A DNA stretch of 64,000 nt from a virus (taxonomy: Duplodnaviria > Caudoviricetes). Position numbers and translations under genes: made by a program. A model generated the notes under the pieces. It searched no databases. It saw only the letters and a list, made by a program, of their open reading frames with translations, and had not been told where the DNA came from. This document shows positions 10,718 to 25,843 of the stretch, in pieces (position 1 is the stretch's first letter; every line of letters begins with the position of its first letter). The stretch lies in IMG/VR virus record IMGVR_UViG_3300021961_011268, positions 2,085-66,084 of that record, one strand, 5' to 3'.

Positions 10718-10732
10718 AATGAAAGATAGATT

Positions 10733-12184: not shown

Positions 12185-12939
12185 TGAAAGACCGTATTAA
12201 TTCTCTTTTTGCTATTTGTATTCCAGCTCGTTATGGATCAACACGATTTCCAGGTAAACCACTAGAAGATCTTGGTAATGGTAAAAATTTGATTCAGCAC
12301 GTATATGATATTTGTGCCTCGACTGGTATCGATACTTATGTCTTGACTGATTCAATTGATATTATTAAATCTCTTGGTTCTAAACGTCGTACTATGATGA
12401 CTATTAATAAACACGAAAATGGTACAAGTCGTTGTGCTGAATTTATGTATCGCCATCGTTATAATTCATATCGATATATTATTAATGTTCAAGGTGATAT
12501 GGTTGATATAAGGCCTGATATGATTCAACAAATCGTTAATTATATTAGTAATCTTTACCTATTAAATGTTAGTGGTCAAATACCAGATGTTCTTAGCCTT
12601 TATACTGAAATGAAACAAGAAGACCGTGAGAATCCTCACGTTGTTAAATGTATACATAACAATAATATATTAGCAAAAGCAATATGGTTCTTGAGAGCTC
12701 CGCTAGAGTATGGCAGTCAACATTTAGGAATCTACGGCTATACAAAGGATGCTCTATTAAACTATAATGAGCTTGATCGTACTGAGCACGAACAGATCGA
12801 ATCGTTAGAGCAATTAAGATGGTGTGTTAATGATATAGATTTTAGGTTATTAAAAACAGATTATGATGGCCAAGAAATCAATACGCCTGAAGACTTAGAA
12901 AAATGGAAAGACATAAATATTAAAGGTTATAATAAATGA
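12181..12939 (+). CDS. kdsB: CMP-KDO synthetase
   Basis: IPARYGSTRFPGKPL, NVQGD, HLGIYGY and ESLEQLR motifs. Confidence 0.94.
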   Translation: MMKDRINSLFAICIPARYGSTRFPGKPLEDLGNGKNLIQHVYDICASTGIDTYVLTDSIDIIKSLGSKRRTMMTINKHENGTSRCAEFMYRHRYNSYRYIINVQGDMVDIRPDMIQQIVNYISNLYLLNVSGQIPDVLSLYTEMKQEDRENPHVVKCIHNNNILAKAIWFLRAPLEYGSQHLGIYGYTKDALLNYNELDRTEHEQIESLEQLRWCVNDIDFRLLKTDYDGQEINTPEDLEKWKDINIKGYNK

Positions 12940-13289
12940 TTGCTGGAAAAATATGGGGTACCACTGAGTTAATAGAACAAAATCATGCCTTGGAGTTTCA
13001 TAGAATAACTATCAAAAAACGTGGCATTTGTTCTAAACATAAACATGAGGCAAAAACAAATGGCTTCTTTGTTGAATCAGGCAAGTTGCTCATAAGAGTA
13101 TGGCAAAATGATTATGACCTTGTTGATGAGACTATCCTTTATTCTGGAGATTATACAACTGTAAAGCCAGGAGTTTATCATCAATTTGAAGCATTAACAG
13201 ATGTCATTGCATATGAATTATATTGGGCTCCTCCTTTACAACACAACGACATACAACGAGAAACAGTAGGATATATTAAAAATGACTAA
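12936..13289 (+). CDS. Cupin-fold protein (possible sugar isomerase)
   Basis: KIWG, SKHKH, FFVESG and PGVYHQF cupin motifs. Confidence 0.75.
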   Translation: MIAGKIWGTTELIEQNHALEFHRITIKKRGICSKHKHEAKTNGFFVESGKLLIRVWQNDYDLVDETILYSGDYTTVKPGVYHQFEALTDVIAYELYWAPPLQHNDIQRETVGYIKND

Positions 13290-13578
13290 TGAACTCAATG
13301 ATTTCGGTTTTTGTTTTGTTGATGATGAAGAGTTTGAAGCACCAAAACTTGAACTTGAAAATGTTAAAGAAGCAACAACCGCAGAAATAGAATTAATTAA
13401 AACACAAGCGTTTGATACAATACAATCGATGCAAAGTCTTATATTACCACTTCTTCTGAATTTGAAAAAGAATCCAGAAAAGACTGTAATTAAATGGCCG
13501 AATCGTGGTCCAATTATTCAAGCACAAATTGATAAGATTGAGAAACTCATTGACGATTGGCAATCGCAAATATTATGA
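13282..13578 (+). CDS. Hypothetical phage protein
   Basis: DFGF and LKKNPEK..IKWPNR motifs; coupled to neighbours. Confidence 0.6.
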   Translation: MTNELNDFGFCFVDDEEFEAPKLELENVKEATTAEIELIKTQAFDTIQSMQSLILPLLLNLKKNPEKTVIKWPNRGPIIQAQIDKIEKLIDDWQSQIL

Positions 13579-14389
13579 TAATCGTAAAGATATTCAAAAG
13601 ATATGGAATGATTCAAAGCATAATATAATCAAAGCAAAGGGAACCATTGGTCTCGGCGATTGTATGTCTGCTTTGAATATAGCTCATTTTCGTTCTTTTA
13701 TATTTGAAAAAAAGATCACTCTTGAGAATCATTGGTATCATGATGAAGATTATCAATATCACTTTGAAGATCCAGAAACAATTATCGAAAAATTTGATTA
13801 TTTTGCAAAATATTATCAACCAGCAGATGTTGAAATAAAGCACATATTCAATTCAACAAATGAAGGTCTTTATAAACAACGTTATCAACACCATCGTGGT
13901 ATTATTAAAAATAATGATTATCGTGCATGGTCATTTAATGCGTCAATTGTAAATACTCCAATTGTAAAAAATAAAATTGTGATGTGGAGACAAACATTTA
14001 ATGCTGATATACCAAAGAATTATAAAAGAATATTTGATAATGATGGTTGGAATTATATTGTTCAATCTTTACAAAAACAAGGATATAGTGTAGCTCAAAT
14101 TGATTATCGAACTTCAATTAGAGAAGTGATGTACCATATATCAACTTGTGAAGCTACAATTGGATATGAAGGAATGTTTCATTATGTTGCTAAAAATTTT
14201 TGGAAGCCAATGATTATTTTTACACGAGATAATATTAGTAAATTACATACACCACACGCACTTCTTTTTTGTCGTTCAATTAAAAGACCATTTGATATGA
14301 CATGTCTTGATAATTTTCCACCAATACTTGATATTGCTAAAAGTATGATAAATACAGCATATAAGAATATGATATTGGAAACAAAATGA
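13505..14389 (+). CDS. Putative GT-B-fold glycosyltransferase-like protein (start uncertain)
   Basis: GLGD and IGYEGMFHYVA motifs resembling GT9; glycan-island context. Confidence 0.5.
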   Translation: MVQLFKHKLIRLRNSLTIGNRKYYDNRKDIQKIWNDSKHNIIKAKGTIGLGDCMSALNIAHFRSFIFEKKITLENHWYHDEDYQYHFEDPETIIEKFDYFAKYYQPADVEIKHIFNSTNEGLYKQRYQHHRGIIKNNDYRAWSFNASIVNTPIVKNKIVMWRQTFNADIPKNYKRIFDNDGWNYIVQSLQKQGYSVAQIDYRTSIREVMYHISTCEATIGYEGMFHYVAKNFWKPMIIFTRDNISKLHTPHALLFCRSIKRPFDMTCLDNFPPILDIAKSMINTAYKNMILETK

Positions 14390-15375
14390 AAATAGATAGA
14401 GCAGTAATTGAAATAGCCGGTGGATGTAATTATAGTTGTGATATGTGTCCACAATCAAATCCAGGTCGTGATTCACGCTTCTTGAGAAATATGGGACTCG
14501 AAGAATTTGAAAAGAATGTGGCTGATTGTGCTCAACATGGATTAAGAGTCGTCAATCTTGATGGTTCTGGTGAAGCAACACTTCTTCATAACTTACCAGA
14601 TTATATTCGAATTGTAAAGAAATATGGAGCAAAAGCATTTATCTTTTCAAATGGTTTACGTATGCGTGGAAAATTCATGCAAGAATGTGTTGATGCTGGT
14701 CTTGACTTCTATCGATTCTCTGTGATTGGTTCAACACCAAAAGAATATAGTAAATGGATGAATCGTAGTGAACGTACTTATGATATTATATGGAATAATA
14801 TAAAAGAAATGCAAAGATATATTCATCTTTCAGATTCGCAATGTATTGTTTCAACGTATCATCTTATTTGTAATAATAATGATCCAGAAGAACTCAATCG
14901 ATATAAAGCAAAGCATGCAGAAATCAATCGGATTGTTCCAGGAATTAAAACAGAAATATGGAAAATGCATAATTGGAGTGGTGTATATGATAATGAACAA
15001 AAAAGAAGTGGTACTATCAAGACGTGCGGAAGACCTTTTAGCCCAGACGTCGTTATCAGAGCAGGAGGCCTTGATGGAAAAACTGGAGCAGTTGCACCTT
15101 GTTGCCAAGTCCTTGGACAAGACGAAAAAGCAGTCTTAGGTCATACATCTGAAAATACAATTGAAGAAATATGGAATGGTCTAGAATACACTCAATTAAG
15201 AGAAGACCATATTAATGGAGAATATCCAGATTATTGTAAAGGATGTGACTTTTTGATCGATGATCCTGAAGTTCTTGTTTATACTAATTTTGATAGATCT
15301 CAATATCATATGCATGGTACAGAATTTAATTTAAATGATTATCGTGATGTTAGACAATATTTACCACCGCTTTAA
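14386..15375 (+). CDS. Radical SAM protein with SPASM/twitch domain
   Basis: CNYSCDMC, GSGEA, and C-terminal C...PCC...CKGC. Confidence 0.9.
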   Translation: MKIDRAVIEIAGGCNYSCDMCPQSNPGRDSRFLRNMGLEEFEKNVADCAQHGLRVVNLDGSGEATLLHNLPDYIRIVKKYGAKAFIFSNGLRMRGKFMQECVDAGLDFYRFSVIGSTPKEYSKWMNRSERTYDIIWNNIKEMQRYIHLSDSQCIVSTYHLICNNNDPEELNRYKAKHAEINRIVPGIKTEIWKMHNWSGVYDNEQKRSGTIKTCGRPFSPDVVIRAGGLDGKTGAVAPCCQVLGQDEKAVLGHTSENTIEEIWNGLEYTQLREDHINGEYPDYCKGCDFLIDDPEVLVYTNFDRSQYHMHGTEFNLNDYRDVRQYLPPL

Positions 15376-15392
15376 TTTGGACGACTATCGCA

Positions 15393-16025
15393 ATGTATGA
15401 GATTAGATATAGTGAACTCTGGGATCACGGATATTTGTGGCCAAAAAAGGATGTACATCTTTGGCGTCATTGCAATAAAAATAAGTTTGGCCCAAAGATG
15501 CTAGATATTGTGATCGAAAAAGCGAGTGGCAACAAAACTATAGTACAAGCCGGCGGAGCGACCGGGGTTTATGCAAAGTATTATGCTGACTTTTTTGATA
15601 ACGTAATAGTCTTCGAACCTGATAGTACAAACTTCCATTGCTTAGAAAATAATACAGGTTCACATAAAAATATACATATCAATAATTTTGCTCTATCACA
15701 CAATTGCCAAGAAGTACCAATGCGAAATGTCATTATCAACGCTGGCGCAACTCACGTCACTCGTAATCCAAAGGCAACAAAATACAAAGCAAAGGCAGTC
15801 ACAATCGATAGCCTCAATCTTGATTCTTGTGATGTGATTCATCTTGATATTGAAGGATACGAAACAAATGCTCTTCGTGGTGCAATGAAGACAATTCAAA
15901 AATATAAACCGCTCATTGTTCTTGAAACTTGGGATAACGATTTGATGGCATCGATCGGCTATACTTCATATGGCTTTGCTGGTAACGATAAGGTATTTGT
16001 CTCTTATGACTTACTCGTATCTTAA
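15393..16025 (+). CDS. FkbM-family methyltransferase
   Basis: VQAGGATG, VFEPD and HLDIEGYE motifs. Confidence 0.85.
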   Translation: MYEIRYSELWDHGYLWPKKDVHLWRHCNKNKFGPKMLDIVIEKASGNKTIVQAGGATGVYAKYYADFFDNVIVFEPDSTNFHCLENNTGSHKNIHINNFALSHNCQEVPMRNVIINAGATHVTRNPKATKYKAKAVTIDSLNLDSCDVIHLDIEGYETNALRGAMKTIQKYKPLIVLETWDNDLMASIGYTSYGFAGNDKVFVSYDLLVS

Positions 16026-16611
16026 TAAAAATATACCAATTCATATTATCACACTTCTCGGTAATCCAATTTCTGAATATTATTTGAATGAAATTGAACC
16101 AACGTGGCATCTCTTTGGTTATGAGAACACTCGATTATTCAATGGTATTACGCCTGAAACAATCGAAGAAAGATGTCCAATCAAACTTAATTTCATATAC
16201 AAAAGAAAACAAGATCGTAAACCAAAGTATTTTACGCCAACAGAAAAAGCGTGTTGGTATAGTCATTATTATCTATGGAGAAAAATTCGTAGGGAAGGCG
16301 TACCGGCCATTGTAGCCGAACACGATTGTAAATTATTACAGCAATTGCCAGTTAGTCTTGAACAATATGACATTCGATCATTTGCATCACATCATATAAA
16401 GAAATGTCTAATGGCTGCGAGCGCATATTATATTACGCCAAAAGGTGCTGATCAACTGATTGAGAATCTTGGACGAGTCATTCAAAATGTTGACGGATAT
16501 ATACTCAATCAACCCAATCAAACTAATTTTAAAAAGCAAATATATATTAATACATACGCTCAAGTGATATATAACAAGAAAATTGGAGCCACCATAAACC
16601 ATGACAAATAA
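15970..16611 (+). CDS. GT25-like glycosyltransferase
   Basis: ACWYSHYYLW, AEHD and AYYITPKGA motifs; start probably a downstream ATG. Confidence 0.7.
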   Translation: MALLVTIRYLSLMTYSYLNKNIPIHIITLLGNPISEYYLNEIEPTWHLFGYENTRLFNGITPETIEERCPIKLNFIYKRKQDRKPKYFTPTEKACWYSHYYLWRKIRREGVPAIVAEHDCKLLQQLPVSLEQYDIRSFASHHIKKCLMAASAYYITPKGADQLIENLGRVIQNVDGYILNQPNQTNFKKQIYINTYAQVIYNKKIGATINHDK

Positions 16612-17389
16612 GCGACTCATATTTCAAGTAGCAGTTGGAAGACCTTCAAAACTCTATGAGCATTGTATTAAATCAGTCAGTCAATATTGTAAAAAATATA
16701 ATATTGATCATATTGTTCTTCGTCAACCAAAATTAAGAATTGGTGTTGATCCATTTAATACAAATAGGTCAACAGAAGCTGTTGCACGTCTTGGTTATTT
16801 ACCAATCTTTGAAAAAGAAAACGCATTTGAATATCTGGATCAATATGACCAAGTTGCAATCATTGATTCAGATATATACATTCGTGACACTGCACCAAAC
16901 ATCTTTGATGAAGTCACAGATGAATACGATTTTGGTGCTGTTGTAGAACGTCAAATGCCTATCACAGAAGCATATAAAGCAAAGATTCGTAATTATTCAA
17001 GAATGCAATATTCATCATTAAATCAAATCGATTGGAAATGGAATCATGATGGCGCTGAGTTTTATAATATGGGTATGATGGTATTAAATCAATCATTCAA
17101 AAAATATCTCAATGGCGAATCGCCAAAAGAATTCATTCAACGAATCGAGTTTAAAAACTTTGTTGATGGCAAAGGTGCATGGAAATGGAGTACTGACCAA
17201 ACATTATTGAACTACTTTGTCAAAAAATATAAAATCAAAACAAAACAGCTCGAATATAAATGGAATTCATTGTACACTGCAGTGACACCTAAGGCACAGA
17301 AAGAATCTCATTTTGTACACTTCTTTTTGAAAGATCATTTGCCAAATCGTGGTGAGGATGTTGATCAACTCATCAAGGATATCGACTAA
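16601..17389 (+). CDS. GT-A glycosyltransferase (GT8/GT34-like)
   Basis: IIDSDIYI DxD motif, YNMGMMV, DQTLLN and FVHF. Confidence 0.75.
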   Translation: MTNKRLIFQVAVGRPSKLYEHCIKSVSQYCKKYNIDHIVLRQPKLRIGVDPFNTNRSTEAVARLGYLPIFEKENAFEYLDQYDQVAIIDSDIYIRDTAPNIFDEVTDEYDFGAVVERQMPITEAYKAKIRNYSRMQYSSLNQIDWKWNHDGAEFYNMGMMVLNQSFKKYLNGESPKEFIQRIEFKNFVDGKGAWKWSTDQTLLNYFVKKYKIKTKQLEYKWNSLYTAVTPKAQKESHFVHFFLKDHLPNRGEDVDQLIKDID

Positions 17390-17400
17390 AGGTAAAGCAC

Positions 17401-17532
17401 TAATACTGTTACATTTTTGTTACACTTTGAAAAAAAATGCACACTAAATGTATAAATGTGCATTTTTTTGTTTACATACTATTAAAACTAGTATAGAATA
17501 GATATATCAAAACAACAAAAGGACATTATATT
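17401..17532 (+). promoter_or_regulatory. Early promoter cassette, copy 2
   Basis: CTGTTACATTTTTGTTACA; A-run/TGCAC..GTGCA/T-run hairpin; TTTACA(17471)-N17-TAGAAT; CAAAACAACAAAAGGACA. Confidence 0.85.
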
Positions 17533-17814
17533 ATGGATAATACAAATTTAAAATTCAGTGGTTTCAAAGTAGGTCAAACGATCAAAGCATTTGATTTTAT
17601 GCCAATGGCCGATCGCCCGGATAGATTCGTTCAAGGTAAAATCGTATCAATACCAGAAGATCGTGGTTATGCTTGTTATGAAGTAAAGTCTGATGCATTT
17701 CTTGGTAATTACGATGAAGGTGTATCGGTTTTTGTTCCGATGGAATTGGATTTCATGGAGTATGACCAGCGAGTCACATTGATCATGGACGAAAACGGAA
17801 GGGAGAGAGTGTAA
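17533..17814 (+). CDS. Early hypothetical protein
   Basis: First gene after cassette 2. Confidence 0.7.
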   Translation: MDNTNLKFSGFKVGQTIKAFDFMPMADRPDRFVQGKIVSIPEDRGYACYEVKSDAFLGNYDEGVSVFVPMELDFMEYDQRVTLIMDENGRERV

Positions 17815-17815
17815 T

Positions 17816-18484
17816 ATGAGACACGCTGCTCGGCACCTTCAAGATCATCAGATTTTGATATACGGACAAGGTGGTAAACTTGCTATAAAAGCAGATTTGC
17901 CATTAGAACTCATCATGAAATATGATCGTTATTATGATAAGAAAGTTCATCTTATTGAAAAAGGTCGTACGACACGATTCAATGATAGTAAGATGAATAA
18001 AGTTTATGCTGCTGAAAATCATTCAGCACAAAAGTTCAAAGATCAACTACCGCCTTTGTCTGACAAAGAAATGAATAAAGCTTTCAAACGTATTGTCAAG
18101 TCAAAGACGTACCAAAAACTTGTTGAAGCGAAAAGCCAAGCCAAAGGTCATTCTCAGCCAAGTCTTGTCATCAAAGACAGACTTAATGGTAATTGTCAAG
18201 GTTGGGCTCATCCGAATGGTATTATTGAATTACGAACAAATCGAAATCTTTATATTCTATTGCACGAGCTTGCTCACACTGCAGGTCACATGCATCATGA
18301 CGTTGGTTTCATTCAAGCAGTATTGAAACTATCAAGTCGTTTCATATCACGTGAGTTTGCAAAAGAACTGAAAAAGACATTTAAGAAATTAAAGATCAAG
18401 ACAACGATTTCAACTCACATCAAAACTCCACAAGAATGGTTGAAAGATTATGAAAGACTTTCAGGCGCAAGAAAAAAGTTATAA
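17816..18484 (+). CDS. SprT-like zinc metallopeptidase domain protein
   Basis: LLHELAH followed by HMHHD..F; basic protein. Confidence 0.65.
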   Translation: MRHAARHLQDHQILIYGQGGKLAIKADLPLELIMKYDRYYDKKVHLIEKGRTTRFNDSKMNKVYAAENHSAQKFKDQLPPLSDKEMNKAFKRIVKSKTYQKLVEAKSQAKGHSQPSLVIKDRLNGNCQGWAHPNGIIELRTNRNLYILLHELAHTAGHMHHDVGFIQAVLKLSSRFISREFAKELKKTFKKLKIKTTISTHIKTPQEWLKDYERLSGARKKL

Positions 18485-18513
18485 AAATCTATACATCAAA
18501 AGGACAATATATT

Positions 18514-18867
18514 ATGATTATAAAACAAAACATCAACGAATATACAGTAGAAGAATTAATAACTATTAAAGAAGAAGCTTTAAAAAATGCTAGAGAAACA
18601 GTCGAAAAGCATCTCTTACAAAATGGTGAATACGGTTATTGTGGCTTTGCTTGGACTAATATATATGATATTAAAGGTAGTACGAAACTAGGACGTAATA
18701 TGAAAAAAGCAGGTTTTGAAAAGGATTATTCTGGAAATTTTAGTTTATGGAACCCAAGTCAATCATATACACAATGTATGTATACAAAAGAAATAGGTGC
18801 AGAGGCTGCAGCTGCAATATTTAGAAAAGCTGGTTTTGACAGTTATGCACATTCAAGAGCAGATTAA
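18514..18867 (+). CDS. Early hypothetical protein
   Basis: CAAAAGGACA leader like the cassettes; CGFAW motif. Confidence 0.65.
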   Translation: MIIKQNINEYTVEELITIKEEALKNARETVEKHLLQNGEYGYCGFAWTNIYDIKGSTKLGRNMKKAGFEKDYSGNFSLWNPSQSYTQCMYTKEIGAEAAAAIFRKAGFDSYAHSRAD

Positions 18868-18880
18868 AGGATAATATCAA

Positions 18881-19339
18881 ATGATTAAATATATTAGTCA
18901 TCGTGGTAATTTAACTGGGCCTGAACCAGAAAAAGAAAATAGAATTTCTACAGTTGAAAACGTTTTACATCTAGGATTTGATTGTGAGATTGATGTTCGA
19001 TTTATTGATAATAAATTTTATCTAGGTCATGATGAAGCACAAGAAGAAGTATCAATTAAATGGTTAAATCAAAGAGGTCTATGGATCCATTGTAAAAATA
19101 TTGAAGCTTTGATTGAACTTCAGCAATATAAATATATTAATAGTTTTTGGCATCAAGAAGATCAATATACACTTACAAGTAATGGATATATATGGGTTTA
19201 TCCAACTGAATATATACCTATGAATAGCGGTAATCGTATTATTGCAAATTGTGCAAATGTAATGGTTAATGATGGTCGATATGCAGGTTACTGTTCTGAT
19301 TATATACAACATTTAAAGGAAGAATTTAGTGCATTATAG
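18881..19339 (+). CDS. Minimal GDPD/PLC-like phosphodiesterase-fold protein
   Basis: ISHRGN, EN, EIDVR, LGHD and CSD motifs. Confidence 0.75.
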   Translation: MIKYISHRGNLTGPEPEKENRISTVENVLHLGFDCEIDVRFIDNKFYLGHDEAQEEVSIKWLNQRGLWIHCKNIEALIELQQYKYINSFWHQEDQYTLTSNGYIWVYPTEYIPMNSGNRIIANCANVMVNDGRYAGYCSDYIQHLKEEFSAL

Positions 19340-20393
19340 AGTAACGTACGAAATTGAAAGTGATGATATACCTTTAGCAGCTCATAATATTGCTATTGGT
19401 CAAAGTATTGGTAATCCAAATGTTCGTTCAGAAATTGAGATGGCTGACAACATTAAAGAAATGGAAGCAATCGTCGAAAAGATTGAAGGTAATAAAGTAA
19501 TAATTGCCTTTCCTTTGAAAGCGTGGGATTGGCCAAACATATCGCAACTTTTATGTACGATACAAGGTGGTCAGTCAGATATTGAACTTGTTCATCGATG
19601 TCGAGTGATTGATATTGAAGGTTTAGATTATATGAATCAACCAGTTCTTGGTATGAAGGCAATGAAAGAAAGATGCGATGCAACAGATCGTCCTCTCTTT
19701 GGTAGTATTGTAAAGCCAAAATCAGGTCTCACTGAATTACAACTTATCAAAATTGTTGAACAAATGGTTGATGGTGGTACGGATTTCATTAAAGAAGATG
19801 AGATCATGGCAAACAATTCTTATTTACCTCTTCAAAAACGTGTTGATATTATTAGTGAAATGTTAGATAAGAAAAACTCAAATGTTGTTTATTCTTATTG
19901 CGTGAATGCTGATCCACTTGAATTGATTGAAAATCTTGATATTGTCAAGCAAGGCGGTGGTGATTGCGTTCATATTAACTTCTGGTCTGGACTTGGTGCA
20001 TATACAACAAGCAATCAAAAAGGACTTATTACTCACTATCAAAGGTCGGGCATTCGTATTCTAACCGACCCGGATAATCGATTTAGTGTTTCTTGGCCAG
20101 TTGTAGTCAAACTTGGTATTATGGCAGGTATCGATACGATGCACATTGGAATGCTTGGTGGTTATTATCCAGAAGGAGAATCAGAAGAAGAAACACTTGA
20201 GGCATTATCACTTTGTCAAAAGTATGATCGTGTTGCAGCCCTCTCATGTGGTATGAATCCAGATTTTGCACGAGAAATACGTGGTAATATTGGAAATAAT
20301 TGGATGGCTAATATAGGTGGATGGCTACATACAGGTGATAGTATATATCAAAAAGTTTATGAAATGAGAAAAAGTCTAGAGGAAACAATATGA
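19329..20393 (+). CDS. RuBisCO-like protein (form IV)
   Basis: IVKPKSGL and GTDFIKEDE motifs, DTMHIG, SCG; lacks the His294 and Lys334 equivalents; GTG start. Confidence 0.9.
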   Translation: MHYRVTYEIESDDIPLAAHNIAIGQSIGNPNVRSEIEMADNIKEMEAIVEKIEGNKVIIAFPLKAWDWPNISQLLCTIQGGQSDIELVHRCRVIDIEGLDYMNQPVLGMKAMKERCDATDRPLFGSIVKPKSGLTELQLIKIVEQMVDGGTDFIKEDEIMANNSYLPLQKRVDIISEMLDKKNSNVVYSYCVNADPLELIENLDIVKQGGGDCVHINFWSGLGAYTTSNQKGLITHYQRSGIRILTDPDNRFSVSWPVVVKLGIMAGIDTMHIGMLGGYYPEGESEEETLEALSLCQKYDRVAALSCGMNPDFAREIRGNIGNNWMANIGGWLHTGDSIYQKVYEMRKSLEETI

Positions 20394-21097
20394 AAATAAT
20401 TTTGCCAATGGCGGGAAATGGTAGTCGATTTTTTGATGCCGGATATTCTCTACCAAAACCTTTGATTGATGTCAAAGGAAAACCGATGTTTTCTCGTGTT
20501 CTTGATAATTTAAATATTACAAAGGATGATGATATTCATTTCATTGTTCGTATGGAACATGTACTTAATTATCAAATACAAAATCAGATTCATGACTATT
20601 ATCCAGATGCTCATATCCATGCATTAAGTGAAATGAATGAAGGGGCTTGTCAAACTGTTTTGACAGCAATCGATCAATATAGTGAATTAGATTTTATGGT
20701 AGCAAATTGTGACCAAATTATGATATGGGAAAGGCCTGATTTTAATTTTAAAATTGGTGGTACTATCATGACGTTTACACCCGATCATGATAAACCAATA
20801 CATTCATACGTAAAATGCAATGATAAAGGGCATGTGATTGAACTTGCTGAAAAACGTATGATTAGTAATATTGCAACAACTGGTGTTTACCATTTTGGAT
20901 CTCAAAAAGATTTCTATATTGCAGCACATCAAATGATGGAAGCAAATGATCGTACAAATGGTGAATTCTATCTTGCTCCTGTATATAATTATTTAAATAA
21001 ACCAATTGAAATATATCATTGCGAAAAATTCATTGGAATGGGTACACCTCAAGAATTAGAAGAATTGAAACAAACTGATTATTATAAGAACTTATGA
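20390..21097 (+). CDS. Sugar-phosphate nucleotidyltransferase
   Basis: ILPMAGNGSRF...PKPLI, NCDQ, AEK, NGEFY and MGTP motifs. Confidence 0.85.
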   Translation: MKIILPMAGNGSRFFDAGYSLPKPLIDVKGKPMFSRVLDNLNITKDDDIHFIVRMEHVLNYQIQNQIHDYYPDAHIHALSEMNEGACQTVLTAIDQYSELDFMVANCDQIMIWERPDFNFKIGGTIMTFTPDHDKPIHSYVKCNDKGHVIELAEKRMISNIATTGVYHFGSQKDFYIAAHQMMEANDRTNGEFYLAPVYNYLNKPIEIYHCEKFIGMGTPQELEELKQTDYYKNL

Positions 21098-21828
21098 AAC
21101 TTGCTATTTGTGTAACTGGACAATATAGACCAACTGTAAGAAATCCATCAGACGCAAAATTTAATTTAGATCGCTTTCAACAGATCTTTTATGATGCTGA
21201 TGTATATTATCACACATACGATAAAAATGTAGATTCATTACCAAATTGGATAAATCGCAATCAAGTTTATTCATGGCCTGAACCAGAAAATCATTACCAT
21301 CCAGTAAATGATACGCCTTTTTTGTGTCCACATAAAAAATTTCATGATTATCGAAAAAGAAATATTTTAACACATAAGACTGCTCATGCCCATAAGCAAA
21401 TACTTTCTTATGCAAATTTAATTGAACAAATGACATTACCTCAATATCATAGTTATGATATATTGATTCGTATACGTTGGGATACCGCAATCAATATGAC
21501 TCGTCAAGATATTGAAAAGTATTTTGAATATGTAATGAATGAAGGTCCTGTTGGATTTATGACAAGGGCAAATCGTGGACCAAAATATGAAAATGGAAAT
21601 ACCGTTATATTGCCAAAAGATAGTACCGCTATAGATGATGATTGGTATTGTTATTTACCTGATACAATGATACTTCATAGTCCAAAACATTTTGATCCAA
21701 AATATGTTCAAGAACTTTTTTCAAAACGACAATTATGGCCAGCAGAATGGGGATGGTGGCAAACAATGTCAGAACCTTATAATAATAATCATTTATCTGT
21801 CCATGGTGGTGTTATTATTGCAAGATAA
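21094..21828 (+). CDS. Putative glycosyltransferase-like protein
   Basis: KLAICVTGQYR and YDILIRIRWD motifs common in glycan clusters. Confidence 0.5.
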   Translation: MKLAICVTGQYRPTVRNPSDAKFNLDRFQQIFYDADVYYHTYDKNVDSLPNWINRNQVYSWPEPENHYHPVNDTPFLCPHKKFHDYRKRNILTHKTAHAHKQILSYANLIEQMTLPQYHSYDILIRIRWDTAINMTRQDIEKYFEYVMNEGPVGFMTRANRGPKYENGNTVILPKDSTAIDDDWYCYLPDTMILHSPKHFDPKYVQELFSKRQLWPAEWGWWQTMSEPYNNNHLSVHGGVIIAR

Positions 21829-21833
21829 ATCTA

Positions 21834-21862
21834 TTTACATATTTAAAAGTATAATATATAAT
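21834..21862 (+). promoter_or_regulatory. Sigma70-type promoter
   Basis: TTTACA-N17-TATAAT. Confidence 0.65.
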
Positions 21863-21923
21863 TATAATTATATTTTTAGAAGTATAATATATAATTATAA
21901 TTATATTTTTAGAAGTATAATAT
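21847..21923. repeat. 33-bp AT-rich tandem repeat (~2.3 copies)
   Basis: Unit AAGTATAATATATAATTATAATTATATTTTTAG containing the palindrome ATATAATTATAATTATAT. Confidence 0.9.
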
Positions 21924-21940
21924 TAAGAGGAAAGTAAAAC

Positions 21941-22555
21941 ATGAGTGAGTTAAGAAAATCATTTGATAGAGCTGGATCTGATAAAGGCTGGAAACATGGT
22001 TATGAAAGGGCTTATGAAGAAACCTTTGAACCAATTCGAAATGAACCATTGAATATACTTGAAATTGGTATTTTACATGGTGAATCACTTGCTGCTTGGG
22101 TTGACTACTTTCCGAATGCACAAATTTATGGCATTGATACATTCGAAAGAGTTGCACCAAAAGATATTAATATATTGAATCATGAACGTGTACATTGGTT
22201 AAAAGGTATGAGCCAAACAATTAATACAAAAGAATTAATAAAAAAAACTTGGCCTGATGTTCAATTTGATATTATTATTGATGATGGCCTACATACGCCA
22301 ATTGCGAATGGTGCCACATTTGAAAATCTGATTGAATTTTTAAAAGATGACGGATATTATTTTATTGAAGACATATATCCACTTGATATTCTTACTGAAA
22401 AAGAATGGCAAAATCGTTGGATCACAACACACCAAAAAGATTTTACGATGATAAATTGGGTAAGATTTACAAATGCATTATTTGGATATAAAGAAAAACA
22501 TTATGATCTTCGAGATCGATATGCTGATTCTTATATTATAAGGATATCGAAATAA
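21941..22555 (+). CDS. Class I SAM O-methyltransferase
   Basis: SDK..HGY, ILEIGI, IYGID, DIIIDDGLH and YFIED motifs. Confidence 0.85.
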   Translation: MSELRKSFDRAGSDKGWKHGYERAYEETFEPIRNEPLNILEIGILHGESLAAWVDYFPNAQIYGIDTFERVAPKDINILNHERVHWLKGMSQTINTKELIKKTWPDVQFDIIIDDGLHTPIANGATFENLIEFLKDDGYYFIEDIYPLDILTEKEWQNRWITTHQKDFTMINWVRFTNALFGYKEKHYDLRDRYADSYIIRISK

Positions 22556-23289
22556 TGAAAGCTTTTATTATTACAATGAAGGATAATTCTGAATCTGTTG
22601 CACTGTCCAATCGTTGTGTTGAATCAATAAAAAATTCGAATACACTACTTGATGTTTATATATCAAATGGAGTTGTACCAGAAACACTTTCAGAAACACT
22701 TCATTCGTATTTTCGAAATTCATCTATACCAAATATATATTATACATATCCAAAAACTCCTGATGAAAATCGTCATGATATTAAATCAGGTTTAAAACTT
22801 TCAGCCTATCAAACAGTTGATTTGGATAAAAGAGTTTCTTGCCTAATGTCTCATTATGTATTATGGCATTATGCAATTAAAAATAATGAGACAATTATGA
22901 TACTTGAACATGATGCGTGTTTTTATCCAAAGAAATTCAATGTTAATATAAAATTTTCTGGTTCTATTCTTGGTCTTAATGATCCAAGAGGAGCAACAAG
23001 AAAAGCAAATGTATATCATGAGAAGCTTGCAATTGGCAATCCAGAATCAAAACCAATTCCAAGAGAGATCCCTTGGATTGATGATCATATGGTACCTCAA
23101 GGTCTTGCTGGAAATTCAGCTTATATTATTAAACCAAAAGGTGCTCAAATATTATGTGAATTAATTGCTGAACATGGATTATGGCCGAATGATAGTATCA
23201 TGTGTAAACAATTAATGCCAGGTGAATTGCAAACAGTTTATCCATATGTCACATATGTAAAACAAACTAAGTCATTTACATCATCTTAA
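22555..23289 (+). CDS. GT25-like glycosyltransferase
   Basis: SCLMSHYVLW, ILEHDA and AYIIKPKGA motifs. Confidence 0.75.
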   Translation: MKAFIITMKDNSESVALSNRCVESIKNSNTLLDVYISNGVVPETLSETLHSYFRNSSIPNIYYTYPKTPDENRHDIKSGLKLSAYQTVDLDKRVSCLMSHYVLWHYAIKNNETIMILEHDACFYPKKFNVNIKFSGSILGLNDPRGATRKANVYHEKLAIGNPESKPIPREIPWIDDHMVPQGLAGNSAYIIKPKGAQILCELIAEHGLWPNDSIMCKQLMPGELQTVYPYVTYVKQTKSFTSS

Positions 23290-23298
23290 GGAAATATT

Positions 23299-23997
23299 AT
23301 GAAAGCATATGTTATTACAATTGAGAATCATAAAGGTTCAAATGATTGCGCAGATCGATTAATTAAATCTGGTAATGCAGATCGTTTTGGTAGTGGTCTA
23401 TGGATTCATAAATTTAAGGCAACAACACCTACTAATATCCATCAGATATTTGAAAATGAAGGTTTAAATCCTTCTGCTTTTCAGGATAAATATTCAATTC
23501 AAGAGAATGCAATGGCTTGTTTTTATTCTCATTATTCCTTATGGAAAAAGACGGTTGAAGAAGATGAGCCTCATATGATCTTTGAGCATGATGCAGTTAT
23601 TGTGGGTGATATTCCAAATATATTCACACTACCTGATAAAGGATGTATATCATTTGGTAAACCTTCATATGGCAAATATAATATTCCAACACAAATTGGT
23701 ATTAATCCATTACAGAGTAAGCAATACTTTCCAGGCGCGCATGCGTATCTAGTCAGACCTCATTGTGCAAAACAATTAATTCAAAAGGCTAAGACACACG
23801 CAGCTCCAACAGATCTTTTTTTAACAAATGCTAATTTCAATTTCCTTGAAGAATATTATCCATGGCCTGTTGAAGTAAAAGATACCTTTACAACAATACA
23901 ACAAGAAAATGGATGTATTGCAAAACATAATTATAATAAGAATTATCGTATTGATACAAATTGGGATAATCCTAATGCGGGACAAGATTTTAAATGA
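23299..23997 (+). CDS. GT25-like glycosyltransferase
   Basis: ACFYSHYSLW, IFEHDA and GAHAYLVRP motifs. Confidence 0.75.
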   Translation: MKAYVITIENHKGSNDCADRLIKSGNADRFGSGLWIHKFKATTPTNIHQIFENEGLNPSAFQDKYSIQENAMACFYSHYSLWKKTVEEDEPHMIFEHDAVIVGDIPNIFTLPDKGCISFGKPSYGKYNIPTQIGINPLQSKQYFPGAHAYLVRPHCAKQLIQKAKTHAAPTDLFLTNANFNFLEEYYPWPVEVKDTFTTIQQENGCIAKHNYNKNYRIDTNWDNPNAGQDFK

Positions 23998-24635
23998 ATG
24001 TATTCTTAACAGGTTGTGATAAAAATACTGAATGGATGCTACAATGGTGGTATCACGAATATTCAAAATATAATACAACACCTGTTATTTTTGCAAACTT
24101 TGGTGTAAGTCATACAACGCTTGAGTGGGCAAAGGATAATTTTCATGATATTATTGATATGACTAATCAAAAACAAAGTGGCTGGTTTTTAAAACCTCTT
24201 GCCATGAGAGAAGCTGGAAAGGTCTATTCGAAAGTTTGTTGGATTGATACTGATTGTCATGTACTAGATAATATTTCTGAAATCTTTTCATTTTCGAAAA
24301 AAGAAAAACTTGGCATGGTACAAGATAGACCTTGGACAAAAAGAACTGGAGAGATATGGCATAATAGTGGTATTGTTTTATTTGAAAATAATCCAAAGAT
24401 ATTAAATGATTGGATCAATGAGATTCAATCAAATCCAAGAAAAGGTGATCAAGAAACATTGCATTATATGCTTAAGACACCATTAAATGTTTTAATATTT
24501 ATTGAAGATTTACCATTTATATATAATACACTTCGACTCGATTTTGTTGATGGTGTAGCACAAAAAAATGCAAAGGTCCATCATTGGACAGGAGCTAAAG
24601 GAAAAGAAAAAATAAAAGAGATAATGAACAAATGA
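23994..24635 (+). CDS. GT-A glycosyltransferase (GT8-like)
   Basis: WIDTDC, HNSGIV, GDQETL and HHWTG motifs. Confidence 0.75.
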   Translation: MNVFLTGCDKNTEWMLQWWYHEYSKYNTTPVIFANFGVSHTTLEWAKDNFHDIIDMTNQKQSGWFLKPLAMREAGKVYSKVCWIDTDCHVLDNISEIFSFSKKEKLGMVQDRPWTKRTGEIWHNSGIVLFENNPKILNDWINEIQSNPRKGDQETLHYMLKTPLNVLIFIEDLPFIYNTLRLDFVDGVAQKNAKVHHWTGAKGKEKIKEIMNK

Positions 24636-25237
24636 ATAAGGTAATACATGTCATAGGTAATGGGCCAAAAGGTGCACCTCTTTTTAATAAAGAAGAACGT
24701 AAAGGTCTTAAAATCGGATGTAATATACTTCCATTTGCAATACCTAATATTTATGGTACAGTAATTGCTGATTTTAAAATGATGAAAGCGATTACCGAAG
24801 GATCTGTTACTGTACCTGGCGATTGGATCCTTGGCTTTCGGCCGAAGGTATGGAGTGAAAAAACACCTGGTTTTCTTATGAAATTTGGTCATCAAATTAA
24901 AGAATTCTATTTGAATAAACCTGATTATGCTGAAACATATACTGATTTCAATTGTGGCCATATGGCTGTTCATTATAGTGCACATAAATTGAAAGGTACA
25001 GAGATCCATCTTTATGGATTTGATTCTCTCTTTGAGTTTGACATTCGATCTACGACCGACTTTGTATTACCGAGTGATCGTGGTACAGGCAATACTCACA
25101 AGCTATCAGAAAAATGGCGTCATATCTTTAATGAAATGTTCAAAGAATTCAGTGATACAAAGTTTATACTTCATCACAACCATGGTGATCTTAAAATTAA
25201 TAAATCTAATAATATTGAAATTATTATAGGCAAATAA
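24632..25237 (+). CDS. CstII/Maf/GT29-like fold putative CMP-sugar transferase
   Basis: VIGNGP, IGCN, NCGHMA and IHLYGFD motifs. Confidence 0.55.
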   Translation: MNKVIHVIGNGPKGAPLFNKEERKGLKIGCNILPFAIPNIYGTVIADFKMMKAITEGSVTVPGDWILGFRPKVWSEKTPGFLMKFGHQIKEFYLNKPDYAETYTDFNCGHMAVHYSAHKLKGTEIHLYGFDSLFEFDIRSTTDFVLPSDRGTGNTHKLSEKWRHIFNEMFKEFSDTKFILHHNHGDLKINKSNNIEIIIGK

Positions 25238-25354: not shown

Positions 25355-25843
25355 ATGACAAATGAAATTAGAAATAAAGAAAATCAAGTAATTTTCACTT
25401 ATGAAGAAAAATGCTTAAATCAAGCTAACTTAGTTGGTGCTAACTTAGTTTGGGCTAACTTAGTTGATGCTGACTTATCTGGTGCTAACTTATCTGGGGC
25501 TAACTTACATGGTGCTAGCTTATTTAGGGCTGACTTATCTGGGGCTGACTTATCTGAAGCTGACTTAGTTTACGCTAATTTAGCTGGGGCTAATTTATCT
25601 GGCGCTAATTTATCTGGGGCTAACTTAGTTGGTGCTAACTTATTTATGGCTGACTTATCTGGGGCTGACATATCTGGGGCTGACATATCTGGTGCTGACT
25701 TATTTATGGCTAATATAGGTGGTATTACGGCAAATGCCGATCAATTAGTAGCATCATTTAAAATTCCAATTGATTTGATTTTAGATATTCAGCCTGATAT
25801 TCGTATTGTTGAAGAAGAATATCGTGATACTGAGGAAAAATAA
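25355..25843 (+). CDS. Pentapeptide repeat protein
   Basis: About 20 tandem A(N/D)Lxx repeats (15-bp DNA units). Confidence 0.92.

Follow-up and report, generated by a model that had tools for sequence, protein, structure and literature searches.

A RuBisCO-like protein of a T4-like marine myovirus is linked to a sugar-phosphate nucleotidyltransferase and may act in the synthesis of activated sugars for glycans

To our knowledge, every RuBisCO or RuBisCO-like protein (RLP) of known function takes part in CO2 fixation, salvage or catabolism. MtnW, which acts with MtnX and MtnD in the methionine salvage pathway of Bacillus, is a 2,3-diketo-5-methylthiopentyl-1-phosphate enolase, and the RLP of Rhodospirillum rubrum is a 5-methylthio-ribulose-1-phosphate isomerase. 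The viral RLP described here resembles both in its RuBisCO fold, in the retained carbamyl-Lys/Asp/Glu site and in the loss of carboxylase residues, and its expected chemistry would likewise start by enolising a keto-sugar phosphate. However, the MtnW and R. rubrum proteins serve methionine salvage without a nucleotidyltransferase, and PDB entries of these types matched the viral RLP only with E-values of about 1e-9 to 1e-10, whereas 3nwr and the majority of form II/III and form III enzymes reached 1e-17 to 1e-23. The type II PMI-GMP proteins (ManC/AlgA type), which are bifunctional mannose-6-phosphate isomerases / GDP-mannose pyrophosphorylases, combine an NTP_transferase domain with a metal cupin, as do the proteins of giant viruses (NCLDV) and the triple fusions described below, but they synthesise GDP-mannose without an RLP, and the small cupin partner of the RLP gave no PF01050 match. 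Fusion of a RuBisCO-family domain is also seen in the AMP pathway, where ribose-1,5-bisphosphate isomerase catalyses the step before RuBisCO. Two fusions of this isomerase (e2b2) with form III RuBisCO (P0150 and P0161) provide a precedent for regarding RLP-nucleotidyltransferase fusions as joined pathway neighbours, although they are near-canonical form III proteins (459-465 bits with TIGR03326) with 28-31% identity to the viral RLP and a different fusion partner.

Divergent 'Form IV-like' RLPs were described from phage contigs of IMG/VR, some of them from myoviruses, and from Beckwithbacteria in a report whose main text calls their function 'unclear' and views the phage genes as possible vehicles for RuBisCO transfer (Jaffe, Castelle, Dupont and Banfield 2018/2019, bioRxiv 10.1101/386292, PMC6389311). 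The existence of phage RLPs of this clade is therefore not new. Our viral RLP likewise groups with phage and Beckwithbacteria RLPs, and judged by this grouping of sequences it very probably belongs to the same clade. The terms nucleotidyl, glycosyl, sugar, polysaccharide and neighbor are absent from the main text of Jaffe et al., a statement which does not extend to their Fig. S1 on genomic context. In comparison with that main text, the linkage and fusions to nucleotidyltransferase, cupin and GDPD-like genes as well as the members found in SAR11, Legionella, DPANN and giant viruses are contributed by the present analysis. As a link between RLPs and nucleotidyltransferases was not found in the searchable literature, the genomic context of the clade appears to be new.

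The DNA analysed is a stretch of 64,000 nucleotides, termed the window, from a contig which is only about 40% complete. T4-type genes for gp32, gp33, gp2, gp4, baseplate wedge and hub proteins and NrdAB identify the contig as phage, and its source is a T4-like marine myovirus. The following features, all on the plus strand, are relevant here:

12936..17389, +, upstream glycan island: Cupin_2, an unnamed protein, radical SAM/SPASM, FkbM methyltransferase, GT25, GT8-like (Pfam)
16601-17389, +, GT8-like gene of the upstream island (Pfam)
18881..19339, +, minimised GDPD-fold phosphodiesterase-like protein (predicted), 152 aa, ATG start
19329..20393, +, RLP, 'Form IV-like' viral/cellular clade (very probable), 354 aa, GTG start
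20390..21097, +, NTP-transferase (NTPt) of the sugar-phosphate nucleotidylyltransferase family, conserved partner of the RLP, 235 aa
21094..21828, +, ORF4 family protein, putative GT-A-like glycosyltransferase, 244 aa
21941..22555, +, Methyltransf_24 (TylF-like) SAM methyltransferase, PF13578 E=9e-7
22555-23289, +, GT25 glycosyltransferase of the downstream island (Pfam), conserved in the RLP subclade of the window
23299-23997, +, second GT25 glycosyltransferase of the downstream island (Pfam; the two GT25 genes with E=1.2e-11 and 2.2e-13), likewise conserved in this subclade
23994-24635, +, unnamed protein of the downstream island, conserved in the RLP subclade of the window
24632-25237, +, unnamed protein, last of the downstream island (22555..25237), conserved in the same subclade

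The four genes at 18881-21828 were recovered exactly as read in the initial annotation; they overlap by 11, 4 and 4 nt and are followed by a gap of 112 nt; purine-rich stretches resembling ribosome binding sites precede each of the first three. A search against Pfam assigned the RLP to RuBisCO_large (PF00016, E=4.9e-26, 92.1 bits, cut-off 30.1), while the model of the RuBisCO N-domain reached 20.2 bits, just below its cut-off of 20.7. The AF2 model (pLDDT 92.0) superimposed with the RLP 3nwr and with form II, II/III and III RuBisCOs at TMq values of 0.84-0.87; by this predicted fold, comprising the N-domain and the TIM barrel, the protein is a member of the RuBisCO large-subunit superfamily. 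The dN/dS values of 0.10-0.23 against six viral orthologs, a seventh being saturated, indicate a real gene under purifying selection.

Residues were mapped by HMMER alignment of the RLP to the RuBisCO chain 8vgs_A, an entry titled as CABP-bound. K129 and K131 align with its Lys-Pro-Lys, K155, D157 and E158 with its Lys-x-Asp-Glu, Q238 with the second histidine of H-x-H-R, and Y280 with the loop-6 lysine, at which site Tyr/Gly is found; the N-terminal G-Q-S-I-G stands opposite E-S-S-T-G-T. We take the spinach equivalents to be residues 175/177, 201/203/204, 294 and 334, and Glu60/Thr65 in the N-terminal part. Among 22 clade members, K129-P-K131, K155-E-D157-E158, Q238, G274-M-x-G-G-Y279 and G330-G331 are invariant. 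The initial annotation had been made from the letters and their open reading frames, and its description of a protein of only 354 aa with an intact Lys-Pro-Lys pair and carbamylation/Mg motif, with Gln at the position of His294 and without Lys334, was confirmed. The last two features argue that the RLP is not a carboxylase.

The placement outside characterised RLP clades such as MtnW also held, as the protein scored far below all curated cut-offs and fell into a clade of its own. Among NCBIfam models for carboxylases it reached 103.1 bits with PRK04208 (cut-off 438) and 101.6 bits with TIGR03326 (form III, cut-off 497.45), and PRK13475 gave 66.3 bits (cut-off 489). In our trees the clade, with support of 99-100, is separated from OiaX-like and form III groups, and a Beckwithbacteria sequence lies inside a subclade of 60 rows (support 99) which contains all 39 viral sequences; these trees came from quick searches, have SH-aLRT as their sole measure of support, and were built from sequences other than the experimentally characterised MtnW, DeepYkrW and IV-Photo proteins. 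Carriers of the clade are T4-like phages, giant viruses, SAR11, Legionella, DPANN and CPR. The subclade of the window is distinguished by a long branch and a C-terminally shortened RLP.

The NTPt matched PF00483 (E=1.9e-7, 31.3 bits, cut-off 21.2) and PF12804 (28.1 bits, cut-off 27), and among solved structures it is closest to 4evw, an 'NDP-sugar pyrophosphorylase' (E=2.8e-16), with HddC-like proteins next. It also matched PHROG 3980, which is 495 positions long, over positions 3-248. The motif G-x-G-x-R ... K is the N-terminal signature of sugar-phosphate nucleotidylyltransferases, and the corresponding residues G9, G11, R13 and K23 do not vary among 30 orthologs. Score and signature assign the sequence of the NTPt to this family (PF00483).

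The RLP-nucleotidyltransferase linkage, on whose conservation the initial annotation had made its proposal depend, proved conserved across viruses, bacteria and archaea. Counted with HMMs whose source sequences were the viral clusters themselves and with genes called by a simple longest-ORF rule, an NTPt occurs together with the RLP at 34 of the 39 dereplicated viral loci, or 31 of 33 when each flank measures at least 3 kb, and in 44 of 47 cellular loci of the clade, 41 times within two genes. By comparison, among 16 loci with other RuBisCO homologs one contained an NTPt, and none within two genes. The exceptions are two viral loci with full flanks (L049 and L060) and three cellular ones (L084, L091 and L111); viral origin was checked for 10 of the 80 IMG/VR loci. 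The linkage is cemented by gene fusions. Among the 120 best-listed 90% clusters, 36 combine domains PF00016 and PF00483 in one protein, in the orders RLP-NTPt and NTPt-RLP, and RLP, NTPt and cupin are sometimes found on one polypeptide of 813-817 aa (RLP-NTPt-cupin). Furthermore, NTPt-cupin fusions (352-354 aa) occur at NCLDV loci and an NTPt-GDPD fusion at a Micrarchaeota locus. SAR11 carries a compact module of five genes (GDPD-like, NTPt, RLP, NTPt and ORF4 family) between housekeeping genes.

No Pfam match was obtained for the 152-aa protein encoded upstream of the RLP, and its orthologs at loci L077 and L048 remained with 14.7-15.4 bits below the PF03009 cut-off of 23.6. The family profile nevertheless retrieved the GDPD 7e0v from the PDB (E=3.6e-4), with the motif residues aligned. 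The AF2 model (pLDDT 91.4) superimposed with 1o1z and 7e0v in VIA-align over 143-146 of 152 residues (Z=12.0, rmsd 3.1-3.2), and each of the 23 rows that reached Z>=8 was of GDPD, PLD or SMaseD type or carried such a domain. GDPDs are characterised by the catalytic motifs H-R-G, E-N, E-x-D and H-D. Invariant residues among 21 family sequences are H7 R8 G9, E19 N20, E36 D38, G49 H50 and H70 K72. As modelled, the protein is a GDPD barrel with GDPD motif residues, falling short of the length of solved GDPDs by about 100 residues; the family HMM also matches a full-length GDPD (PF03009, E=5e-17) at the Woesearchaeota locus L093. The family is represented at 21 of the 39 viral loci and at 28 of the 47 cellular loci of the clade. 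The initial annotation had counted this gene as part of the unit, which agrees with the other viral subclades (19 of 25 loci) but not with the subclade of the window, where just 2 of 14 dereplicated loci contain it. A fifth recurrent partner had been overlooked: a small metal cupin with an intact metal-binding motif 1 is found at 23 of the 39 viral loci. This cupin, which gave neither a PF01050 nor an ARD match at E<=5, is absent from the contig of the window and occurs in 1 of 14 loci of its subclade; the other cupin of the window, encoded at 12936-13289, matched PF01050 weakly (E=0.026). Since cupin and GDPD-like genes are mostly lost and the RLP is shortened, the chemistry in the window's subclade may differ from that of the rest of the clade.

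ORF4 matched neither Pfam nor PDB sequences. Its Atlas model (pLDDT 0.69) showed a TM score of 0.62 both to CAP59_mtransfer (CAP59-type mannosyltransferase), a match that satisfies the naming bar, and to WavE clusters, so that a function as putative glycosyltransferase is plausible. Y121-D122, R128-x-D130 and D183 are near-invariant in the family, members of which match DUF7796. The family is often multi-copy and is found in 29 of 39 viral loci as well as in the SAR11 module. Genes of the Methyltransf_24 type (clusters c6, c7 and c19) were found at 27 of the 39 viral loci, in 23 of them within three genes of the RLP. As judged by tblastn, genes of the downstream island, whose two unnamed products weakly match Nucleotid_trans and MptE-like models, keep the same order in 26-34 of 80 loci, and the GT8-like gene is present in 36, upstream of the RLP; the radical SAM gene and the gene preceding it recur in three. 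Taken over the RLP loci, the glycan genes comprise GT25, GT-A-like, GT2/GT4/GT10/GT11, Wzy, LicD and sugar epimerases/dehydratases, together with PMM, UDP-Glc dehydrogenase and methyltransferases of the Methyltransf_24 and FkbM families.

On balance, we consider it probable that the RLP is a catalytically active, non-carboxylating enolase/isomerase which feeds a nucleotide-activated sugar pathway for glycans. The RLP would enolise a phosphorylated keto-sugar by means of its carbamyl-Lys/Asp/Glu metal site and Lys-Pro-Lys pair and, by reprotonation, act as an isomerase/epimerase like the known RLP enolase and isomerase. Its product would be passed to the adjacent NTPt or, alternatively, its substrate would be received from it; this order of steps is one we infer. 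In most lineages, the RLP-NTPt unit would also include the mini-GDPD and the small metal cupin, which is probably an isomerase/epimerase of sugar phosphates. The pathway would deliver a nucleotide-activated sugar or sugar phosphate (an NDP-glycosyl or CDP-phospho-sugar donor), which the GT-A-like protein, GT25 and TylF-type methyltransferases may place on a glycan of the infected-cell surface or virion. Linkage and fusions thus lend strong comparative-genomic support to the proposal of an anabolic RLP that works with a nucleotidyltransferase and does not serve salvage or catabolism. Of the initial annotation, this non-carboxylating, anabolic pairing is supported; the pentulose substrate and branched-sugar product that it named are speculative candidates, and the GDPD-like gene is not a core member in the window's subclade. 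A narrower version, to which we give slightly less than an even chance, is that RLP, NTPt and small metal cupin convert a central keto-sugar phosphate directly into an undescribed nucleotide-activated sugar, with an RLP enolisation that migrates the carbonyl or epimerises replacing the usual mutase or redox steps, and that the unit is exchanged among SAR11, the Legionella group, DPANN, CPR, T4-like phages and giant viruses.

The kind of donor is where the principal alternative differs. The NTPt might instead link CDP to a sugar phosphate or polyol phosphate, from which a LicD-type or similar phosphotransferase adds a phosphodiester decoration, the site of action of the GDPD-like enzyme. A LicD-family gene (PF04991, E=1e-42) adjoins RLP-NTPt in Legionella nautarum, and ORFs of the same size lie at its position in two more Legionella loci, as judged by size and position alone. 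Several NTPt orthologs match IspD or NTP_transf_3, a cluster of TagD-like cytidylyltransferases (c40) is found at 3 of the 39 loci, weak RXYLT1_C matches were obtained at NCLDV-type loci, and GDPD-fold partners, one of them the NTPt-fused protein in L105, cleave phosphodiesters. However, LicD was encountered only in the Legionella group, the commonest transferase partners are GT-A-like and GT25 proteins, and the best full-length likeness of the NTPt is to sugar-1-phosphate enzymes (4evw, HddC-like proteins and the GlmU/RmlA/AglF models), which makes a CDP-linked donor rather unlikely. Such a pathway would be a variant of the preferred reading, differing in the kind of donor, with a teichoic-acid-like or ribitol-phosphate-like decoration.

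Four other explanations would assign the RLP to different processes. The combination of RLP, phosphoesterase and metal cupin parallels MtnW/MtnX/MtnD, and the islands encode many SAM methyltransferases and radical SAM enzymes, whose 5'-methylthio- or 5'-deoxy-pentose phosphates could be recycled by an MtnW-like RLP, a phosphoesterase and an ARD-like cupin. This is improbable, as the MtnW models NF007095 and TIGR03332 gave 56.5 and 41.5 bits (cut-offs 409 and 513.6), the cupin gave no ARD match in the search above, no methionine-salvage genes were found in the window or in 22 annotated related loci (10 viral and 12 cellular, with none of MtnK/MtnA/MtnB type), and the near-universal NTPt and its fusions would be left unexplained. 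The Burkholderia RLP 3nwr is the best solved sequence relative (E=5.5e-23, TMq 0.84) and the OiaX model NF042437 is among the top three NCBIfam matches, which would fit a catabolic enzyme that decarboxylates or transcarboxylates a phosphorylated oxo-sugar acid and so boosts carbon use by the host. Yet the OiaX score is 91.5 bits against a cut-off of 700, the OiaX-like group forms a separate branch, and genes for kinases, dehydrogenases or transporters that serve sugar-acid catabolism were not seen in the annotated loci; OiaX-type proteins have a catabolic setting (apionate), whereas the neighbours of the viral RLP build glycans, and we regard such a role as very improbable. In some T4-like phages sugar-nucleotide genes serve DNA glycosylation, and in the T4-like phage studied here the activated sugar could similarly modify DNA, as in the glycosylation of hydroxymethyl-cytosine in T-even phages, rather than a glycan. 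Against this, SAR11, Legionella, DPANN and CPR carry the module on their chromosomes, giant viruses have it as well, and its neighbours include Wzy, GT4, LicD and O-methyltransferases; a dCMP hydroxymethylase was not found in the 64-kb window, which belongs to the incomplete contig, and DNA modification is accordingly a highly improbable function. JGI labels clade members as 'ribulose-bisphosphate carboxylase large chain'; surveys covering auxiliary metabolic genes (AMGs) list viral rbcL as a carbon-fixation gene. A genuine CO2-fixing RuBisCO is extremely improbable in view of the Gln at the His294 position, Tyr/Gly at the loop-6 lysine and the differing N-terminal Glu/Thr positions, the RuBisCO models all far under cut-off, the absence of small-subunit or phosphoribulokinase family matches among the window ORFs scanned, and the presence of the clade in heterotrophs such as SAR11 and Legionella; the carbon-fixation reading of 'viral rbcL' is very probably wrong for this RLP clade.

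If the conserved role in activated-sugar synthesis is correct, it constitutes a new functional branch of a much-studied enzyme family, and many AMG calls of viral rbcL would be surface-sugar genes. The joint reading of RLP, NTPt and cupin would, if true, be the first anabolic, glycan-building role in the RuBisCO family. Since the module occurs in SAR11, SAR11-phage-like phages, giant viruses and the Legionella group, a surface sugar of this kind would bear on phage-host recognition in the ocean. The natural RLP-NTPt and RLP-NTPt-cupin fusions represent ready-made single proteins for an assay.

Matches of 74 ORFs of the window to PHROG families identified a T4-like myovirus, with the gp32 ssDNA-binding protein, the gp33 late regulator, the gp2 end protector, the gp4 head closure protein, baseplate hub and wedge proteins, NrdA/NrdB and spanins. 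The source record of 66,084 bases, of which the window covers 64 kb, is estimated to be ~40% complete. The closest isolates were found via the gp6 baseplate wedge protein, and the identities to phage C48C1 (41.6%) and Pelagibacter phage HTVC008M (38.5%) place the phage as a distant marine relative of the pelagimyophages. The four overlapping genes described in the initial annotation were recovered as ORFs with successive overlaps of 11, 4 and 4 nt:

18881-19339, + strand, GDPD-like protein of 152 aa
19329-20393, + strand, RuBisCO-like protein (RLP) of 354 aa
20390-21097, + strand, NTP-transferase (NTPt) of 235 aa
21094-21828, + strand, ORF4, a protein of 244 aa

This unit is embedded in a glycan-gene island of ~12 kb (12936-25237), whose other genes encode a cupin, a radical SAM/SPASM protein, FkbM and Methyltransf_24 methyltransferases, three GT25 proteins and one GT8-like protein. 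A DNA search with positions 17000-24000 returned only three short matches (132-230 bases of the query), and a scan for promoters and terminators found 95 as compared with 90.5 expected. As no match at E<=1e-3 was obtained when the RLP was run by tblastn against 50,697 GenBank phage records, the protein is absent from the cultured phages of that set.

The RuBisCO-type metal site of the RLP is conserved and under selection, and residues specific for carboxylation and hydrolysis are missing. The protein is a homolog of the RuBisCO large subunit (Pfam E=4.9e-26), and its AF2 model (pLDDT 92.0) superimposed on RLP 3nwr and on form II, II/III and III enzymes with TMq values of 0.84-0.87. Residue equivalences were taken from an alignment to RuBisCO chain 8vgs_A, the entry of which is titled CABP-bound. 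The Lys-Pro-Lys pair (K129, K131) and the Lys-x-Asp-Glu metal/carbamate site (K155, D157, E158) are kept, Gln238 replaces the second His of H-x-H-R, Tyr280 occupies the position of the loop-6 Lys, and the N-terminal substrate-binding stretch is unlike that of 8vgs_A. The residues had been read correctly from the sequence, as judged by this alignment; spinach numbers for the active-site positions are presumed ones. The kept core, Gln238 and the Tyr280 region are invariant across 22 diverse clade members, and dN/dS values of 0.10-0.23 against six orthologs, a seventh being saturated, indicate purifying selection on the gene.

Comparison with NCBIfam models revealed scores far below all cut-offs, namely 103 bits vs 438 for the form I/III-type, 102 vs 497 for form III, 91.5 vs 700 for OiaX, and 56.5 vs 409 and 41.5 vs 513.6 for the MtnW models. 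Likewise, 21 clade representatives stayed under the cut-offs, the top score among them being 279 bits. These representatives and the RLPs of 39 viral loci formed one clade (SH-aLRT 99) in a 115-sequence tree, apart from OiaX-like RLPs and from form III. The RLP thus appears to lie outside the characterised clades, as judged from scores and from trees that are quick searches with references labelled by NCBIfam scores rather than experimentally characterised MtnW, DeepYkrW and IV-Photo sequences. The window RLP belongs to a subclade of short proteins (351-381 aa) without ~40 C-terminal residues, which sits on a long branch nested within the viral diversity. In an exhaustive search of 1.84 billion representatives, 556 relatives reached E<=1e-3, and 29 of these reached E<=1e-30.

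Phage RLPs as such are already known, because Jaffe et al. (bioRxiv 10.1101/386292) describe phage contigs with ~90 non-redundant 'Form IV-like' RLPs, which group with Beckwithbacteria and the function of which is called 'unclear'. Very probably this is the present clade, since in our combined tree of 93 rows a Beckwithbacteria sequence lies inside the subclade to which all viral sequences belong.

The partner proteins were assigned by profile and structure comparison, and the identities first proposed for two of them were borne out. The 235-aa protein is an NTP_transferase by Pfam, and its top solved relative is 4evw (E=2.8e-16), an uncharacterised NDP-sugar pyrophosphorylase, followed by HddC-type enzymes. 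The 152-aa protein had zero Pfam matches; its family profile matched GDPD 7e0v (E=3.6e-4) across the H-R-G / E-N / E-x-D / H-D region, and these motif residues are invariant in 21 family sequences. Its model (pLDDT 91.4) gave zero Foldseek matches at E<=1e-3; VIA-align then aligned it to GDPDs with Z=12.0 across 143-146 of 152 residues. Each of the 23 rows with Z>=8 was of the GDPD/PLD/SMaseD type or had a domain of that type, and generic TIM barrels appeared from Z 7.4 downwards. Profile, motif residues and model together mark the protein as a genuine minimised GDPD barrel. For ORF4, zero family matches were obtained; its Atlas model was closest to CAP59-type mannosyltransferases and WavE proteins (TM 0.62), and members of its family matched DUF7796. 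A fourth partner family of other loci, a small cupin of ~108 aa, has an intact motif 1 (G-X5-H-X-H-X4-E-X6-G) with invariant His44 and Glu51, and is not found in the 66-kb record, by estimate ~40% of the phage genome.

Across viruses and cells, an NDP-sugar-pyrophosphorylase-type partner of the RLP is near-constant, a metal cupin and a mini-GDPD are frequent, and the context is one of glycan building. In IMG/VR, 178 pattern matches comprised 176 viral stretches encoding an RLP relative; 80 loci were kept, the viral status of 10 of them was checked, and the RLP ORF was called in 78 of 81 loci. Dereplication at 90% RLP identity left 39 viral loci including the window. With genes called by a simple longest-ORF rule and partners counted by HMMs built from the same viral clusters, 34 of the 39 loci contained NTPt, at a distance of no more than two genes from the RLP in 29, and so did 31 of the 33 having at least 3 kb on each side. 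Of the remaining five loci, three are truncated by contig ends and two (L049, L060) truly lack the gene. The ORF4 family was present in 29/39 loci, MT24-type methyltransferases in 27/39, the small cupin in 23/39 and the GDPD-like gene in 21/39. In the subclade of the window, cupin and GDPD-like genes are mostly lost (1/14 and 2/14 loci, respectively, the window being one of the two), so that the minimal unit there is RLP, NTPt and ORF4. Pfam annotation of 10 distant viral loci placed the module in T4-like phages, e.g. L052 with a neck protein and gp15, and in giant viruses, such as L048 with an NCLDV major capsid protein and PCNA, and the GVMAG L072; the surroundings always contained glycosyltransferases, methyltransferases and sugar-nucleotide enzymes.

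Scanning a single genome for each prokaryotic species gave 69 loci, which were divided at a drop in E-value (<=1e-35 vs >=1e-29) into 50 clade loci and 19 loci of other RuBisCO forms serving as control. Clade loci comprised 12 labelled Pelagibacter/Pelagibacteraceae (one a complete chromosome), three Legionella species, Tatlockia, one Francisellaceae MAG, Azospirillum, Nonomuraea, Turneriella, Verrucomicrobia, Elusimicrobia, Beckwithbacteria and other CPR bacteria, as well as Woese-, Pace-, Nano- and Micrarchaeota. Among the 47/50 with an RLP ORF, NTPt adjoined the RLP in 31, lay no more than two genes away in 41 and was present anywhere in the locus in 44, and GDPD-like, cupin and ORF4 family genes occurred in 28, 13 and 12, respectively. 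The corresponding NTPt values for the control loci with an ORF (16/19) were 0/16, 0/16 and 1/16, and none of these 16 carried a cupin, GDPD-like or ORF4 family gene. The linkage of RLP and nucleotidyltransferase is thus conserved (34/39 viral and 44/47 cellular loci vs 1/16 control loci). In SAR11 the module is compact, with genes for GDPD-like protein, NTPt, RLP, NTPt and ORF4 family protein inserted between thyX and mrp/hflKC.

The coupling extends to single polypeptides. Protein P0123 (667 aa) carries both Pfam domains, RLP and NTPt, as do 36 of the best 120 clusters found with it. HMMs detected the orders RLP-NTPt and NTPt-RLP in separate groups, and the reversed domain order marks the latter as an independent event; two proteins of 813-817 aa are triple fusions RLP-NTPt-cupin. 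Furthermore, NCLDV proteins of 352-354 aa are NTPt-cupin fusions, NTPt is joined to GDPD (NTPt-GDPD) in a Micrarchaeota locus, and a GHMP-kinase-NTPt fusion adjoins the RLP in a Woesearchaeota locus. NTPt is the hub, with RLP, cupin and GDPD as partners. The initial annotation had interpreted the operon as anabolic sugar activation by a non-carboxylating RLP; its core, an RLP coupled to a sugar-activating enzyme, is supported by the conserved linkage and the fusions, and the chemistry is treated below as a proposal. A 706-aa Azospirillum 'fusion' (L108) was rejected, as its long ORF results from read-through in high-GC DNA and the RLP is encoded in a different frame. In two further proteins (P0150, P0161; 726-742 aa), a ribose-1,5-bisphosphate-isomerase-like IF-2B domain is fused to a near-canonical form III RuBisCO; they presumably resemble single-polypeptide AMP-pathway enzymes.

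In the combined tree the clade was recovered as monophyletic (support 100) and splits into three groups, the first with Legionella, Francisellaceae, Turneriella and Nonomuraea, the second with SAR11-A and DPANN, and the third (60 rows) with all viruses, SAR11-B, CPR and the fusions. On this tree, the virus label must change at least eight times, therefore the gene moved repeatedly between cells and viruses. SAR11-B adjoins a 16-member phage group. The two SAR11 lineages (Pelagibacter-labelled loci within L085-L110), eight rows with DPANN archaea and four beside the phage group, also differ in gene order. Two 'MAG' contigs, L082 (Sphingobacteriales, 142 kb) and L083 (Balneola), fall within the phage subclade of the window, L083 being nearly identical to viral locus L010, and L084 (Phycisphaerales MAG, 4-kb contig) groups with a giant-virus trio; all three are probably viral contigs binned as bacterial.

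Most likely, as far as gene content and residues indicate, the RLP would enolise a phosphorylated keto-sugar and return the proton elsewhere, resulting in isomerisation, epimerisation or carbonyl migration. Enolisation with proton return is the reaction of MtnW and of the R. rubrum RLP, which provide a precedent for this step. The cupin may interconvert sugar-phosphate isomers, NTPt would then activate the product, and GT-A-like and GT25 transferases together with TylF-type methyltransferases would use and decorate it. The donor may be an NDP-glycosyl sugar or a CDP-linked sugar phosphate handed on by a phosphotransferase. The second option draws support from LicD, which adjoins RLP-NTPt in Legionella nautarum, from the GDPD partners and from IspD/NTP_transf_3 matches. 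In some phage loci (L058, at 8538-9152 and 10453-11262, and L062), genes for RibB (3,4-dihydroxy-2-butanone-4-phosphate synthase, E=3.9e-64) and a transaldolase-like protein lie closely downstream of the RLP module. As RibB and transaldolase both use pentulose or ketose phosphates, these neighbours may hint at the substrate pool.

Searches of open-access and bioRxiv text revealed no report of an RLP tied to a nucleotidyltransferase or to glycan synthesis, nor, in the portions available, of an RLP in giant viruses or SAR11 in the present sense; likewise, the accessible part of a 2025 RuBisCO survey preprint does not mention phage. AMG papers count viral rbcL as a carbon-fixation gene, and one of them describes activity for a Proteobacteria-like rbcL co-expressed with rbcS; this is a different rbcL and has no bearing on the present clade. 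The JGI label of clade members, one fusion protein included, is 'ribulose-bisphosphate carboxylase large chain'. The RLP clade itself being known, no earlier description seems to exist of its conserved coupling, often by fusion, to a sugar-activating enzyme, or of its spread over SAR11, Legionella-group bacteria, DPANN, CPR, phages and giant viruses.

Several tRNA genes are frequent in large T4-like phages; the 64-kb window yielded none. Three + strand ORFs (10277-10717, 45368-46198 and 47783-49804) matched different portions of the T4 gp5-type 'baseplate hub subunit and tail lysozyme', and this protein appears to be split over them. The NrdB small subunit (4973-6172, +) carries a thioredoxin/glutaredoxin-like N-terminal domain, with PHROG 22 matching residues 1-71 and PHROG 86 residues 88-394. 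Immediately 3' of the glycan island, a pentapeptide-repeat protein is encoded (25355-25843, +; PF00805, E=5.1e-31), and a pair of mutually adjacent paralogs (27347-27640 and 27641-27928, +) belongs to the uncharacterised family PHROG 18771. The radical SAM/SPASM gene of the island (14386-15375, +) and its unnamed upstream neighbour (13505-14389) accompany the RLP island in three (L002, L004, L008) of the 80 related loci, and B12-binding or plain radical SAM genes also occur in Woesearchaeota and Beckwithbacteria RLP loci. Outside the island, a galactose-3-O-sulfotransferase-like gene (41163-41717, -; PHROG 3347, E=2.4e-17) is located between the genes for the gp2 DNA end protector and gp4 head closure, and a sulfotransferase cluster, c85, is present in related RLP loci.
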